Part shown: positions 22,693 through 40,933 of the stretch, in pieces
Position numbering within the stretch: position 1 is the first letter of the stretch
Layout of the letters: every line of letters begins with the position of its first letter
Assembly (NCBI GenBank): GCA_013331695.1
Contig: DUFX01000036.1
Span: 1-45,577, forward strand
Direction of reading: 5' to 3'
Source of the DNA: Candidatus Woesearchaeota archaeon
GTDB lineage: Archaea > Nanobdellota > Nanobdellia > Woesearchaeales > UBA12501
Length of the DNA stretch: 45,577 bases
The notes under the pieces: generated by a model
Seen by the model: only the letters and a program-made list of their open reading frames with translations
What the model was told of the DNA's origin: nothing
Databases searched by the model: none
Translations under genes and position numbers: made by a program

Positions 22693-22974
22693 CTATCGCA
22701 TTTCCTGTACTTTTATGATGTGCCAGCCGAACTGCGTTTTGACAGGCTTGGAAATTTCTCCGGGTTTCAATGAAAATGCCGCTTGTTCAAATTCCTTTGC
22801 CATCTGCCCCCTTCCAAACCAGCCAAGATCTCCACCTTTCTTTTTTGAAGGGCATAATGATTTTTCTTGTGCAATCTGCTCAAACGATTTTCCGTGGGTT
22901 ACATCAAAGCTTGCCACATGCGCTTCTTGTTCTGTCTTGACCAAAATGTGTGATGCATGGACTTGTTTTACCAT
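22693..22974 (-). CDS. parvulin-type peptidyl-prolyl cis-trans isomerase (PpiC)
   Basis: MVKQVHASHILV...GGDLGWFGRGQMAKEFEQAAF...FGWHIIKV. The start is the internal ATG (M26 of the track ORF). Confidence 0.85.
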   Translation of the reverse strand: MVKQVHASHILVKTEQEAHVASFDVTHGKSFEQIAQEKSLCPSKKKGGDLGWFGRGQMAKEFEQAAFSLKPGEISKPVKTQFGWHIIKVQEMR

Positions 22975-23003
22975 CTTTTCATCTCCTGAATTATATAAAA
23001 ATA

Positions 23004-23216
23004 ACGCCGCAGCCCGGATTACCACATAAGAACCTAAGGTTCTTATCATCTCCTACCAGGGGATTTTCTCGCTAACGCTCGAAAATCAGACTACGAAAAA
23101 CTACGCCGCAGCCCGGATTTGAACCCAGGACTTACTCACTTCGCTGCGCTCGTTCGTAGTCTGGCTTCAAATCCTTCGCAGCACGGATTCGAAAAGTCGC
23201 TTGCGTCTTCTCATTA
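23004..23216 (-). other. tRNA-like region: two copies of a T-arm/acceptor 3' end without a detectable matching 5' half
   Basis: ACGCCGCAGCCCGGATT is repeated exactly at 23004-23020 and 23103-23119. On the minus strand the upstream copy reads CTGGG-TTCAAAT-CCGGG-CTGCGGC-G. An 11-bp perfect inverted repeat (23087-23097 / 23153-23163) brackets that copy. A 9-bp hairpin lies at 23026-23046. I could not fold a cloverleaf by eye. Confidence 0.4.
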
Positions 23217-23341
23217 CGCCGCCACTGGGATTTGAACCCAGATATCCTTGCGGAAACAGGATCTTTACGGACCGGCACAGTCATGGGCGGCTGTTGCCTG
23301 CGTTAGCAATCCTGCGCAATACCGGATTATGCGATGGCGGC
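23217..23341 (-). tRNA. tRNA-Ser(GCU) with a ~41-nt intron at the canonical 37/38 position
   Basis: Hand fold: acceptor GCCGCCA/TGGCGGC. D arm GCAT-AATCCGGTA-TTGC. Anticodon stem CAGGA/TCCTG interrupted after TTGCTA (anticodon at 23305-23307, intron ~23263-23303). Long variable arm TTTCCGCAAGGATAT. T arm CTGGG-TTCAAAT-CCCAG. Discriminator G. A TATA box (TTTATAAA, 23378-23385) lies 37-44 nt upstream of the tRNA 5' end. Confidence 0.8.
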
Positions 23342-23632: not shown

Positions 23633-25636
23633 ATGGAAAAAAGAAGCGTGATAGGACCCAAAGAACTTATGGGTAGCTTGAAGCATCGTGTGCAAAAGAT
23701 GCTTCCCTTTTACAGTTCTCAACCATCAAGCAGGCATCATTCTACTCGTGAAAACCGGTGCCAAGGGATGCGCAATGTTGCGGTTGTCAAAGTGAGCAAT
23801 CCCCAACATAAAACCGAGACGATGCTGATTGTTTCGTTTGCGGTGCTCATTTTTGTCGTGTTCTTTTCTAGTTTTAGCAATACTCCTCCTTTTACAGGAA
23901 ATGTTGTACAGGATGCGGTGCAAATTAACCAATGCGGATTCAATCGCTGGGAAAACGGCAAAACCCATGTTTTAACACAAGACCTTGTTTTAAGTGCAGG
24001 AATTGATTGTTTAAACATTCAAGAAAAACAGGATATTGTTCTTGATTGTCAAGGCTATAGTATTACTACTGATCCTGCAGCAACGTTTCGTCAGCCTCCA
24101 AAAGGAATTTATTTGAGCGGTAATCGTCTAACGGTTCGTAATTGTCGTATTGCAAATTTTCCTTGGACAGGCATCAGTATCGTGGGGAATCACACCCTTC
24201 TTGAACATAATACCATCGAAAATAACCGTGAAGGTGTTGAAGTTGCAGCGATTCCTGCTCCACGCTTTGGTTTTAGTATTACTTCAACTACACTCCAAAA
24301 TAATCTGATCCAAAACAATGTTCGTTTTGGCGTTGTCATGAGGGGGTACGACAGTATCGTGCGTGGAAATGTCATCCAAGGGAATGGAAGAACAGGATTA
24401 GCACTTGTCGATACTGCAGTGGTCGAGAATACGGTGCTCTGCAATAACAACCGAGAAAATTTACCCGATAAAAAAGATCTTAAGTGTGGTGGCGGAAGCA
24501 ACAATCCCTCGCAAGGACAAGGAAACTTTATAGGAACGTTGGAGCGTTGTTTCGTACTTAACGCTCTTGCTTGGCCGACTGAATCAGATTATCAAGCGTG
24601 CGATCAAGCTCCTCCTCTTTCTCCTGATGTGGGTGTTCCTGTACAGGCTCCTTCGCGGGCTCCCCGCGACGCAGCATGTCCTTCACACCAGAATACCGAA
24701 TGTCAAGAAGGTTCAGTTTGCAGAAAACTCTTTGTGAGAGGAGATCCTACCCACTGGTCAGGAAGTAAATATTTCTGTAAAGGTCCTATGGCAGATGGCG
24801 GAATTTGCGAGCGAAATGACCAATGTGGTGCAGGCAAGAGTTGTGTGAATCAGAGATGTACTGCACCGCAACAACAAGGTCAAGAGCAAGCTCAACAGCA
24901 AGAACAACAACCACCGCCTCAGGCTGGCCGTGCGTGTGTGAATAATGCTGACTGTGGCGACGGTTTGCGTTGTCTTTCCCTGATTTGTCAAACAAGAGTG
25001 TGCAGTGAGACAGATGGAGGGAATGATCCTGCTGTTCCGGGAGTTATTACACTGGATAATTCGATTACTCCTAATATTGTTTCTCAAGATACCTGTCAAA
25101 ATGACGCATCGGTTCTCGAGTATTTCTGTTTGCCTAGTCATGAAAGTTCTCGGCAGGTTATGATGTGTCCTGGAGGAAGCACCTGTCAGACCAATGCTGA
25201 AGGTGTGGGTGCCTGTGTTGCTCCTGAAGCTCCACCACATCCACCAGCCGAACTTTCTGAAAATGATGCGTGCGGAGAAAATATTCCAACTCCCTGCAGA
25301 CAAGGTTTGCTTTGTAGAAAGAGCAATCCTGCCAGTCAAACTTTACAATGTCTTCTCCCTTCGGTGCAAGGCGGATTTTGTGAAAGTACTGATCATTGCA
25401 GTGCAGGTTTAACATGTCAAACAGGGCATTGTCTTCCCCCTCGACAGTGTAGAACTCCGGCAGACGAACAAGCACACGGCGGAGACTGCAACCATTGTGT
25501 AAGCATGCCTGAACTCATGCGATATATCGCTGAGTGGAACAATCAAGATCCTGAACAACGGCAACTTTCAGCGATTATGCTGGTTACTCAAGGATATTAT
25601 GATTCATTAGCTGATCCAGCATGTCAACAAGCATGA
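23633..25636 (+). CDS. membrane-anchored surface protein: right-handed beta-helix (PbH1/NosD-like) domain plus Cys-rich modules
   Basis: Signal-anchor MLIVSFAVLIFVVFFSSF. Beta-helix repeats: NCRIANFPWTGISIVGNHTLLEHNTIENNREGVEV, LQNNLIQNNVRFGVVM and VRGNVIQGNGRTGLAL. The C-terminal half contains many Cys residues, Q/P linkers, and a CSETDGGNDPAVPGVITLDN module shared with the next gene. The start is uncertain (TTG 23615, ATG 23633, or later Met codons). Confidence 0.8.
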   Translation: MEKRSVIGPKELMGSLKHRVQKMLPFYSSQPSSRHHSTRENRCQGMRNVAVVKVSNPQHKTETMLIVSFAVLIFVVFFSSFSNTPPFTGNVVQDAVQINQCGFNRWENGKTHVLTQDLVLSAGIDCLNIQEKQDIVLDCQGYSITTDPAATFRQPPKGIYLSGNRLTVRNCRIANFPWTGISIVGNHTLLEHNTIENNREGVEVAAIPAPRFGFSITSTTLQNNLIQNNVRFGVVMRGYDSIVRGNVIQGNGRTGLALVDTAVVENTVLCNNNRENLPDKKDLKCGGGSNNPSQGQGNFIGTLERCFVLNALAWPTESDYQACDQAPPLSPDVGVPVQAPSRAPRDAACPSHQNTECQEGSVCRKLFVRGDPTHWSGSKYFCKGPMADGGICERNDQCGAGKSCVNQRCTAPQQQGQEQAQQQEQQPPPQAGRACVNNADCGDGLRCLSLICQTRVCSETDGGNDPAVPGVITLDNSITPNIVSQDTCQNDASVLEYFCLPSHESSRQVMMCPGGSTCQTNAEGVGACVAPEAPPHPPAELSENDACGENIPTPCRQGLLCRKSNPASQTLQCLLPSVQGGFCESTDHCSAGLTCQTGHCLPPRQCRTPADEQAHGGDCNHCVSMPELMRYIAEWNNQDPEQRQLSAIMLVTQGYYDSLADPACQQA

Positions 25637-40811: not shown

Positions 40812-40933
40812 TAGCCCCGCTCGGACACACGTGTAGGGAAGAGACCTCTCGGCTTTTGCCGACCTTCTCTACAATTCGAACCGAGGTCCCAAGACCCAAA
40901 ATCTCGGATGATTGACCGCTACACTACGGGGCT
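40812..40933 (-). tRNA. tRNA-Gln(UUG) with a 49-nt intron at a non-canonical position (T-loop/T-stem junction, ~59-61)
   Basis: Hand fold: acceptor AGCCCCG/CGGGGCT (A1:U72). D arm GTGT-AGCGGTCAA-TCAT. Anticodon arm CGAGA-TTTTGGG-TCTTG. Variable loop GGAC. T stem and loop CTCGG-TTCGAAT. Then 49 nt (40825-40873, forming its own hairpin with TCGGC-AAAA-GCCGA) before the matching CCGAG. Discriminator A. Confidence 0.8.

Follow-up and report, generated by a model that had tools for sequence, protein, structure and literature searches.

Duplicated tRNA 3' ends behind a woesearchaeal tRNA-Ser(GCT) gene flank a small structured repeat element with tRNA-specific tags

Why should the 3' end of a tRNA be found twice behind a complete tRNA-Ser gene? 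The locus lies in a 45,577-nt stretch of DNA (hereafter the window) from a Candidatus Woesearchaeota archaeon, and the original prediction offered four answers, namely, the 3' half of a split tRNA, a permuted gene, an intron that opens with a duplicated 3' exon, or relic att-like duplications. The question bears on the origin of archaeal non-canonical introns and of split or nested tRNA genes, for which the explanation most favoured is that mobile DNA integrates at the 3' ends of tRNA genes; to our knowledge, few intermediates of such tRNA gene disruption have been described. The answer that we favour, with a probability of roughly 60%, is that a non-coding, non-autonomous and most likely selfish element of about 82 nt resides in the tRNA-Ser(GCT) trailer, with the two 17-mers as its terminal direct repeats.

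The trailer of tRNA-Ser(GCT)

The local features described in the original prediction were recovered in our analysis. Two identical 17-nt copies of AATCCGGGCTGCGGCGT lie 99 nt apart on the minus strand (23119-23103 and 23020-23004 in plus-strand numbering); CTGGG-TTCAAAT ahead of the upstream copy completes a T arm in which one pair is a G.G mismatch; the 11-bp inverted repeat is perfect; a hairpin is indeed present ahead of the downstream copy; and the T-loop intron of tRNA-Gln at 40812-40933 is real. The heptamer GCTGCGA, put forward as a 6/7 match to the acceptor partner, exists as well and sits within a third, decayed tRNA 3'-end copy (Table 1). The tRNA-Ser(GCT) itself ends in AATCCCAGTGGCGGCG, which is not the same as the repeated 17-mer. 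The 217-nt stretch folds better than its shuffled versions (z = -3.58), and the arrangement is not a matter of chance because the same one is found again at eight further loci here and in dozens of genomes besides this one.

Table 1. Features of the tRNA-Ser(GCT) trailer and its surroundings in the window.
Feature	Position	Strand	Remarks
tRNA-Ser(GCT), complete	23217..23341	-	41-nt canonical anticodon-loop intron; Rfam RF00005 44.3 bits; found by ARAGORN with introns
Third tRNA 3'-end copy, decayed (TTCGAATCCGTGCTGCGAAG)	23174..23193	-	63% identity, in register with the other three copies
Anti-T-arm segment GGATTTGAAGCCAG	23161..23174	-	inverted repeats; pairing present in the MFE fold
11-bp inverted repeat	23153..23163 / 23087..23097		CAGACTACGAA / TTCGTAGTCTG
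hp1', apical hairpin of the long hairpin	23129..23160	-	GAAC...GTGA enclosing nested GAGC-GCA-GCGA (tandem G.A type)
Orphan tRNA-Ser 3' fragment	23104..23128	-	T arm (CTGGG TTCAAAT CCGGG), acceptor 3' strand, discriminator
Proximal 17-nt direct repeat	23103..23119	-	A58 to discriminator, plus T
82-nt element interior	23021..23102	-	in order: T-rich left end with TTCGTAGTCTG, hp1, linker, hp2, GTGGT
hp1	23062..23087	-	7-bp stem, tandem G.A/A.G, G-C/C-G step, tetraloop: GATTTTC GA GC GTTA GC GA GAAAATC
hp2	23026..23046	-	9-bp (9-10 bp, ATAAGAACC/GGTTCTTAT); base GATAAG/CTTATG conserved, top covarying; invariant GTGG directly 3'
Element/tag junction			GTGGT-AATCCGGGCTGCGGCG; trailer after the proximal copy is TAGTTTTTCG
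Distal 17-nt direct repeat (tag)	23004..23020	-	followed by T5, then the TATA box of the parvulin gene
Parvulin-type PPIase gene, downstream	22693..22983	-	Pfam Rotamase 9.9e-26; TATA box 22991-23001

The upstream 17-mer is part of an orphan tRNA-Ser 3' fragment that is predicted to be locked in a conserved long hairpin. The 3' part of this fragment, which terminates in ...CCGGGCUGCGGCG, equals the 3' end of tRNA-Ser(CGA) save for one A-to-G change, and the 5' strand of its T stem is identical to that of the adjacent tRNA-Ser(GCT). The anti-T-arm segment upstream is complementary to the orphan T arm at 13/14 positions and, at 14/15, to that of tRNA-Ser(GCT) itself, and a compensatory change at the paralogous C65 locus (ATTTGAAACGAGAT / ATCTCGGTTCAAAT) preserves the pairing. 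The hp1' motif recurs in C65 and C67, and its region matches a related metagenome contig, L115, at 100% identity; indeed, the orphan fragment together with its 60-nt leader is 100% identical there, compared with 88.9% for the flank (P about 5e-5 if neutral). A metagenome scan for the tRNA-Ser(GCT) 3' end returned nothing.

The same contig provides an empty site. L115 is 88.9% identical to our locus over 3.27 kb of flank and has the orphan fragment running straight into the downstream flank, with a single repeat copy; exactly 82 nt and one 17-nt repeat are therefore missing there, and the element is present in one and absent from the other of two related genomes. The second arm of the 11-bp helix forms the left end of the insert, and the empty site lacks it.

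A structured repeat family with tRNA-specific tags

The 82 nt between the 17-mers belong to a non-coding repeat family with two covarying hairpins. The window copy scores 97.4 and 74.7 bits against the covariance models R1 and R2, respectively; BLAST and the covariance models together recovered nine copies in this genome (C62, C65, C3, C67, C60, C36, C13, C59), Woesearchaeota/Nanoarchaeota MAGs contain about 65 further ones, and a motif scan returned about 63 archaeal loci, complete genomes (with 2 and 7 copies) among them. The distribution across the order is patchy: the element is present in 7/17 genomes of the family and in 29/151 of the order (19%), and within a genome it accompanies only 2-11 of about 40 tRNAs. 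With a copy number so low and variable, it is therefore no general requirement of tRNA maturation.

The copies share a layout of T-rich left end, hairpin 1 with tandem G.A, short linker, hairpin 2 and GTGG-N, with hairpin 1 lying 8 to 57 nt from the tRNA end. GTGG is invariant among the examined copies save for a few weak hits, although for most of them it is fixed by the design of the scan pattern. All nine pairs of hairpin 1 covary across 74 distinct copies. In the structure of the element 94.7% of cells are paired, as against 38-54% with slid partners, and double-change cells number 309, as against 89 in shuffles. G.T pairs outnumber A.C pairs by 37 to 10, which is indicative of the tRNA-sense strand, and it is on this strand that the structure is under selection. 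The covariation of the hairpins also argues against a coding potential of the element; a 118-aa ORF starting from an ATG within hp2 (23049) is an artefact, its frame being merely continuous with the parvulin gene. Among known RNA classes, a hammerhead-like ribozyme (GA-GC...GC-GAA core) was rejected for want of CUGA and a three-way junction, a C/D sRNA because the boxes are absent, and a k-turn because the tandem G.A comes without the 3-nt bulge; besides tRNA, Rfam 15 yielded chance-level matches only (E of 0.02 or more), far under the gathering scores.

The tags are tRNA-specific. Each copy terminates in GTGG-N, behind which come the sequence of the neighbouring tRNA from A58 of the T loop to the discriminator (the final 16-20 bases of the neighbour), one to many trailer bases, and then an oligo-T terminator. 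The repeat is not a classical target-site duplication: on the left it always starts at A58 in the T loop, whereas on the right its edge is variable (repeat length 16 to 75 nt), and terminal inverted repeats are lacking. In 43 of the 76 motif hits the upstream GGTTCR-AATC... tRNA end is repeated exactly over 10 nt or more, nearly all the others have a diverged copy adjoining a tRNA, and the neighbouring tRNAs span about 17 amino-acid specificities. Repeat periods range from 61 to 292 nt over all copies. Wherever one of the two 3' ends is decayed or foreign it is always the distal and never the proximal one (about 65 copies), and the proximal 3' end completes the tRNA in every copy. T5-T7 always follows directly 3' of the distal tags, and some proximal ends (C65, C67) are without a terminator. 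The base before the tag tracks position 57 of the tRNA, being G in 24/25 cases when the tRNA has G57, and T in 16, A in 7 and G in 4 when it has A57; neither duplication nor conversion explains this simply. Some repeats extend 27-75 nt beyond strong T-tracts, and tags of the AATCAWT class are mosaics.

The element also forms tandem arrays: L262 contains a perfect threefold array of a 98-nt module, and those of L036 and L057 have foreign tags. Copies are found at contig ends and, in G035, at the borders of an invertible 14.5-kb segment. That 14.5-kb stretch was considered as a larger element and rejected; it represents two inverted tRNA-Ser loci around an invertible chromosomal segment. As a practical matter, such repeats interrupt assemblies, look like pieces of tRNA and can lead the tRNA annotation of Woesearchaeota astray.

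Origin of the duplicated 3' ends

We propose that the trailer of tRNA-Ser(GCT) has been layered with repeats derived from tRNA 3' ends. The family resides directly downstream of tRNA-like 3' ends in Woesearchaeales, and its neighbour in the window would be an older orphan tRNA-Ser 3' fragment and not a functional tRNA. Such a selfish or neutral insertion module could spread within and between genomes by means of host functions. Homologous recombination might drive the spread, with the tRNA gene and the tag as its two homology arms. The tag itself may come from target duplication at insertion or from short-patch gene conversion by the adjacent tRNA, anchored by the shared T-loop AATC(C) and the T-tract. 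On the other hand, strong structural conservation and an orphan region that is 100% identical against 89% for the flank could point to function rather than selfishness.

Enzymes that might mobilize the element show no association with it. Reverse transcriptase RVT_1 (PF00078) occurs in 7/29 element-bearing and 25/122 element-free genomes of the order, Y1_Tnp (PF01797) in 14/29 and 42/122, and Cas1 (PF01867) in 0/29 and 8/122; this genome has none of the three, and RVT_1 and PF01797 are also absent from G035, which carries 11 copies. Paralog clustering of the ORFs of this genome found no multi-copy transposase-like or IS-like ORF, and 2.9 million viral contigs contained no true element match. 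A retroposon or SINE-like origin was rejected given the absence of reverse transcriptase from this genome and its lack of co-occurrence, an origin from casposons given the 0/29 for Cas1, and an IS200/IS605-type PATE given the absence of the Y1 transposase from this genome.

As for an intron opening with a second 3' exon, the end of the element (TGG-N, AAT and then the 3' strand of the T stem) could form a bulge-helix-loop at 59/60 with the T loop, in a geometry like that of the tRNA-Gln intron; what speaks against it is that in about 65 copies the proximal one is never decayed. This proposal leads to an alternative that we consider possible though unlikely, namely, that the element is a functional cis RNA module, with the distal tag serving as an alternative 3' exon in read-through pre-tRNAs. 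TGG-N would pair with T54-T55-C56-R57, leaving AAT as a 3-nt bulge with the T stem and hairpin 2 as outer helices, and the outcome would be a 59/60 bulge-helix-loop for the splicing endonuclease; the module might thus be a living intermediate in the gain of T-loop introns, or it might serve to regulate or repair the 3' end of the tRNA. Its spacing (T stem, 4 nt, 3 nt per strand) indeed equals that of the 59/60 intron of tRNA-Gln, with its TTCG:CGTG helix and AAT and TGT bulges; GTGG, invariant in the examined copies (mostly by scan design), is wobble-complementary to TCR; and the selection on sense-strand structure, the mostly perfect tags, the T5-T7 behind all distal tags with proximal terminators lacking in some copies, and the L119 locus, where the 5' strand of the T stem pairs better with the distal than with the proximal tag, all fit. 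Nevertheless, the TTCR:TGGN helix, for all its tRNA-Gln-like spacing and AAT bulge, would have just 3-4 mostly wobble pairs and no second bulge (BHL only), decay and foreign sequence strike the distal copy alone, and the element sits at a minority of tRNAs and in a fifth of the genomes of the order. Moreover, with the proximal end completing the tRNA in every copy, removal of the insert is not required, and among the element copies no case of a splicing-dependent tRNA was found.

A more specific and rather doubtful model makes element and tag a splice-competent cassette, with the archaeal splicing endonuclease and RtcB acting on read-through transcripts to link position 59 of the T loop to the distal tag and free a circular RNA. 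If so, the loci would show T-loop introns and split or nested tRNA genes in the course of their formation, the circular RNA, comprising the proximal 3' end and the element, might be a stage at which the element spreads as RNA, and the position-57 signature would be left over from the copying of a modified tRNA.

Copying from RNA is also the core of an improbable further reading, according to which a polymerase copied the 3' end of a modified pre-tRNA back to the T loop, misread a methylated A57, stopped and switched to the element, in an event akin to retroposition or RNA-templated repair. Archaeal tRNAs typically carry m1A/m1I57, and an order of T, then A, then G resembles reverse-transcriptase misincorporation at N1-methyladenosine. 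The tags have a left edge fixed at 57/58, a right edge in the T-rich trailer and preceding bases in just this order for A57 tRNAs, with a nearly uniform G for G57. This account has to contend, however, with the reverse transcriptase figures given above and the absence of the enzyme from both this genome and G035, with the repeats that run well past strong T-tracts, and with the mosaic AATCAWT-class tags, which it does not predict.

Relic att-like duplication came closest among the four original options, in that direct repeats bracket an insert that is lacking at the empty site of L115; the locus is not, however, the relic of a large integrated element. Direct repeats of the 3' part of a tRNA are a hallmark of archaeal integrative elements. 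The repeats of the family match the 3' part of the target tRNA, and the orphan T arms of C62 and C65 are chimeric, combining the resident 5' strand of the T stem with a foreign 3' part, as expected from a crossover in the T loop. Integration of such elements has been discussed as a source of disrupted tRNA genes (PMC3293823). Still, it is very improbable that the 17-mers are attL and attR of a virus or plasmid with a tyrosine integrase in the tRNA-Ser gene, with the 82 nt as a deletion remainder. In about 65 copies, the span between the repeats never exceeds some 300 nt and no integrase is adjacent; near-identical elements sit at many different tRNAs with a native tag at each, which therefore rules out a fixed attP as the source; and the viral contigs lack a match.

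Least probable of all is that the orphan fragment functions as the 3' portion of a tRNA-Ser that is split or nested, joined in trans to a 5' part from another locus. The perfect identity of the fragment and its leader in L115 would suit this reading, as would five metagenome contigs (L114, L118, L123, L127, L137) in which complete tRNA-Ser genes are nested in the intron of another tRNA-Ser at the exact same junction, with the same layout as here, that is, inner tRNA, anti-T-like arm, hairpin, outer T arm and acceptor. Nonetheless, the orphan T stem has the G.G mismatch and its 5' strand pairs instead with the upstream anti-T segment, covarying in C65. A separate GCCGCAG 5' half is found neither upstream of tRNA-Ser(GCT) nor elsewhere in the assembly, where GCCGCAG with a D arm occurs solely in the complete tRNA-Ser(CGA) on C65 and an adjoining 13-nt partial duplicate; a missing 5' part is not proof of absence because the assembly is 87% complete. 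The isoacceptors that a split gene might have supplied are all there, Ser TGA, GGA, GCT and CGA each being a complete gene. No acceptor 5' strand or D arm follows either copy, as a permuted gene would demand, and tRNA-Ser(GCT) is all that was recovered with ARAGORN (introns allowed or not), Infernal and Rfam (E up to 10). A genome BLAST of the 227-nt stretch for a leader-complementary trailer found no reverse-complement partner outside the locus. Taken together, a split or permuted tRNA is not supported, and the locus does not appear to encode a tRNA half.

Whatever the route of spread, the family supplies dozens of natural cases of a small structured insert at a tRNA 3' end with a second copy of the 3' exon, and these come without a recognizable transposase, integrase, casposase or reverse transcriptase. 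The fixed T-loop boundary, the base tracking position 57, the possible 59/60 splice motif and the co-occurring nested tRNA-Ser genes are directly testable handles.

Comparison with known systems

Split tRNA halves, as in Nanoarchaeum equitans and Caldivirga maquilingensis, and permuted tRNAs are known systems (PMC3218864). The present locus resembles split tRNAs in that a tRNA 3' portion lies behind a structured leader in a DPANN archaeon, but it is unlike them in having no 5' half, complementary trailer or missing isoacceptor; furthermore, split halves start at 37/38, whereas the fragment here starts in the T loop (the orphan at the T stem). Archaeal non-canonical 59/60 BHB/BHL introns and the proposed intron transposition in Thermoproteales have been reviewed (PMC4090602, PMC4033280). 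Our element shares with the 59/60 introns the T-loop junction, a possible 4-bp helix and 3-nt bulge beside the T stem, and the presence of related sequences at many tRNAs of one genome, but sits after a complete tRNA and brings or creates a second 3'-exon copy.

As with the attL/attR of SSV-type and pNOB8-type elements, a direct repeat of the tRNA 3' part leaves the tRNA intact; unlike those elements, there is no integrase and no large element, the insert measures 60-150 nt, and in place of a fixed attP the ends are conserved as hairpin structures. Casposons integrate at tRNA 3' ends by means of the Cas1 casposase, with a 14-15-bp target duplication. The insert described here likewise has at its border a duplicate, anchored in position, of the bases that close a tRNA gene, but differs in the 0/29 for Cas1, the lack of terminal inverted repeats and the variable repeat length. 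IS200/IS605 elements make no target duplication, unlike the present family, which also shows no significant co-occurrence with the Y1 transposase, an enzyme absent from this genome. In comparison with MITEs, the two ends, AGTTTTTCG... and ...TATGTGGT, are unrelated, with no terminal inverted repeats and no target-site duplication of fixed length. Nevertheless, the element is, like MITEs and PATEs, small, non-coding, multi-copy and patchily distributed, and it shares with them strand-specific folding and subterminal hairpins that are kept by structure and not by sequence.

Trailer of tRNA-Ser(GCT)

The original prediction placed two identical 17-nt copies of a tRNA 3' end behind tRNA-Ser on the minus strand, the upstream one carrying a full T arm, together with an 11-bp inverted repeat and a 9-bp hairpin. 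All of these features were borne out by the sequence and the repeat finder, both helices being exact and the hairpin spanning 9–10 bp. The repeat finder brought four sequences into register, namely, the genuine 3' end of the tRNA, a decayed copy and the two 17-mers; the proposed acceptor partner GCTGCGA exists, but lies inside the decayed copy. The 217-nt stretch folds with z = −3.58 relative to shuffles. Between the 17-mers lies an 82-nt non-coding element (23102–23021); the distal 17-mer is hereafter the tag, and the proximal one is part of an orphan tRNA-Ser 3' fragment (23104–23128).

Features of the tRNA-Ser(GCT) locus
Feature	Position	Strand	Basis or remark
tRNA-Ser(GCT) with canonical intron	23341–23217	minus	Rfam 44.3 bits; ARAGORN with introns
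Decayed tRNA 3'-end copy	23198–23172	minus	63% identity, repeat finder; contains GCTGCGA
11-bp inverted repeat, exact	23163–23153 and 23097–23087	minus	repeat finder
Proximal AATCCGGGCTGCGGCGT	23119–23103	minus	with whole T arm
9–10-bp hairpin, exact	23046–23026	minus	repeat finder
Distal AATCCGGGCTGCGGCGT	23020–23004	minus	second identical 17-mer

The TATA box of the downstream parvulin gene (22991–23001) directly abuts the tag and, with a Shine–Dalgarno sequence, precedes the real start at ~22983. A mechanical 118-aa ORF (22693–23049) opens at an ATG within hairpin 2 and continues in frame into this gene.

The suggestion that the fragment is the 3' half of a split tRNA was rejected. The tRNA finders (ARAGORN, Infernal and Rfam) folded no gene in the stretch; a search of the assembly for GCCGCAG with a D arm recovered only the complete tRNA-Ser(CGA) and an adjacent 13-nt partial copy, and genome-wide BLAST of the assembly, which is 87% complete, found nothing complementary to the orphan leader. 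All four Ser isoacceptors are present as complete genes, so that no serine tRNA is missing, and the 11-bp helix owes one arm to the inserted element, an arm absent from the metagenome contig L115. In the 5' leader of tRNA-Ser(CGA) (C65:5047–5105, source genome, locus L003/L007), the first 13 nt of the gene (GCCGCAGTCGCAT) are repeated 57 nt upstream and followed by their own complement, GCGACTGCG, forming a hairpin. The bin also contains a bacterial-type tRNA-Ser(GCT) (C56:4001–4088) and two tRNA-His(GTG) genes (C10/C78), which may reflect contamination or strain mixture.

Contig L115 was found by scanning metagenomes for the orphan 3' end. It is 100% identical to the window over 85 nt ending with the proximal repeat and 88.9% identical over the 3,271 nt that begin at the distal repeat, parvulin gene included. 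The downstream flank directly follows the orphan fragment in L115, which thus lacks exactly the 82-nt interior and one 17-nt repeat. The difference is a discrete indel of the element, the L115 allele representing either an empty site or a deletion between repeats. Its target in the window is the orphan fragment rather than a functional tRNA, and it is the orphan that the tag matches, indicating that the tag-making process reads local sequence.

A family of structured repeat elements

BLAST against the whole source assembly (1.38 Mb, 93 contigs, the window being C62) returned matches on six other contigs. The element's neighbours in this genome are tRNA-Ser(CGA), tRNA-Ser(GGA), tRNA-Gly(GCC), tRNA-Trp, tRNA-Leu(CAG) and two gap-cut tRNAs. 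The loci share a common plan: behind the tRNA gene come 8–57 T-rich bases, then hairpin 1, whose stem is topped by GA-GC, a loop and GC-GA, and, after a brief linker, hairpin 2 (GATAAG...CTTATG). GTGG and a single further base lead into the tag and an oligo-T run, the tag at each site copying that very tRNA from T-loop A58 to the discriminator. Covariance models R1 and R2, built from 8 and 77 copies, respectively, detected the element in 7 of the 17 genomes of the family and 29 of the 151 of the order, at 1–11 copies each; among complete genomes, Archaeon GW2011_AR15 carries two and OY970338 seven. Rfam holds no matching family. Scanning one genome per species for the motif yielded 74 loci, ~63 of them in Woesearchaeota- or Nanoarchaeota-titled records or mislabelled archaeal MAGs. 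One copy (L263; OY970338.1, ~746,612–746,678) immediately precedes a complete tRNA gene, its hairpin 2 abutting tRNA position 1; given a TATA-like box upstream, it would be transcribed as part of the leader of that tRNA.

The element structure is selected on the tRNA-sense strand. Among 74 distinct copies, 94.7% of cells pair, compared with 38–54% with slid partners, double-change cells number 309 against 89 in shuffles, and both partners have changed in every one of the nine hairpin 1 pairs and in five of the nine of hairpin 2. The non-Watson–Crick cells (37 G.T versus 10 A.C) fit sense-strand folding, as RNA or single-stranded DNA.

In 43 of 76 motif matches, a stretch of 10 nt or more is repeated exactly, its upstream copy preceded by GGTTCA or GGTTCG, which identifies that copy as the T loop; nearly all the others have a tRNA within 150 nt and a diverged copy of its end. 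The adjoining tRNAs cover ~17 amino-acid specificities, so that what is recognised is a general property of tRNA 3' ends. On its left the repeat is bounded by A58, whereas the right edge varies (mode 17–19 nt, but also 27–31, 53 and 75 nt), and the loci are accordingly more aptly seen as a module of tag, trailer and element in 1.x tandem copies. L262 is a perfect threefold array with a 98-nt unit, and in the L036 and L057 arrays the 3' end found in the second unit comes from another tRNA.

The orphan fragment and nested tRNA-Ser genes

Rather than standing free, the orphan T arm belongs to an older layer. CTGGGTTCAAATCC, its 5' strand and loop, is paired at 13 of 14 positions with GGATTTGAAGCCAG (23174–23161), and a paralogous locus on contig C65 keeps this pairing through compensatory change; the long hairpin is capped by a GAAC...GTGA motif around a second GAGC-GCA-GCGA motif. 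The 3' parts of the window and C65 orphans equal the ends of tRNA-Ser(CGA) and tRNA-Ser(TGA), respectively, except for the same A-to-G change, and both T-stem 5' strands are those of the resident tRNA. In further metagenome contigs from the scan that yielded L115, namely L114, L118, L123, L124/L130, L127 and L137, a complete inner tRNA-Ser with its own intron sits within the intervening sequence of an outer tRNA-Ser, at the variable arm/T stem junction, bracketed by a 10–12-bp helix (for example, ACCAAATCCTG / CAGGATTTGGT). Because these contigs present the same order at the same junction (inner tRNA, anti-T-like arm, hairpin, outer T arm and acceptor 3' strand), the orphan may be a relic of a nested pair. 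Its perfect conservation beside an 89% identical flank leaves a small probability that it is functional.

Possible routes of spread

We favour, at a probability of about 0.6, the view that the element is a selfish or neutral non-autonomous tRNA-trailer module spreading by means of host functions. Two homology arms for recombination into naive alleles would be provided by the conserved tRNA gene and the tag, and the repeats would permit element loss and array formation. The tag could be a duplicate made upon insertion, or a product of short-patch conversion with the adjacent tRNA as donor, the tract presumably running from the common AATC(C) to the T-tract; a recurrent tag subclass that begins AATCAWT and is native in its acceptor part only fits the conversion route.

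Splicing is a possible alternative. Ahead of the tag, the invariant TGG-N shows wobble complementarity to T54–R57 of the T loop; AAT and the T-stem 3' strand come next, a spacing that reproduces the 59/60 intron of tRNA-Gln in the window, a T-arm intron correctly predicted and real. The tRNA–element–tag loci might thus form a bulge-helix-loop for the splicing endonuclease, but the proximal copy never decays, which argues against this. A second small insert family consists of hairpins CCCAAAAA-N-TTTTTGGG (C65:5311–5365, C59 ~23730–23780 and C67:10040–10065); the C65 hairpin is found at 59/60 of the T loop belonging to the orphan on that contig and ends GTGGG, that of C59 sits within the linker of the element there, and the third is in the tRNA-Gly trailer.

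The base N before the tag tracks tRNA position 57, being G in 24 of 25 cases with G57 and, for A57 tRNAs, T (16 cases), A (7) or G (4). This pattern looks like copying from a tRNA with methylated A57, a route opposed by the lack of a reverse transcriptase. Four enzyme-based models of mobilisation were put to a co-occurrence test over the same 151 genomes (29 with the element, 122 without); the counts were 7/29 and 25/122 for reverse transcriptase, 14/29 and 42/122 for IS200/IS605 Y1 transposase, and 0/29 and 8/122 for Cas1; the source genome and G035, a genome with 11 copies, encode none of the three.

Relic att-like repeats of an integrated virus or plasmid are argued against by the absence of any large insert between repeats in ~65 copies, and the viral contigs searched contain no element copy. 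The source assembly has no multi-copy transposase-like ORF; its only four-copy ORF family (C10:31962–32817, C13:19628–20489, C4 and C9) has an N-terminus that, by eye, we take to resemble a phage antirepressor or Bro-N-type protein. In G035, a 14.5-kb chromosomal segment between two inverted tRNA-Ser genes (C1:141–14644 and C10; L140, L141), both carrying element and tag, is assembled in both orientations, pointing to an invertible segment or population polymorphism.

Our full-text literature searches, limited enough that an existing description may have been missed, returned no account of such an element, and a recent preprint on Nanobdellota genomes covers missing-tRNA patterns only. Published work on archaeal tRNA gene disruption deals with integrase-borne insertions, introns, and split or permuted genes (PMC3293823, PMC3218864, PMC4090602).
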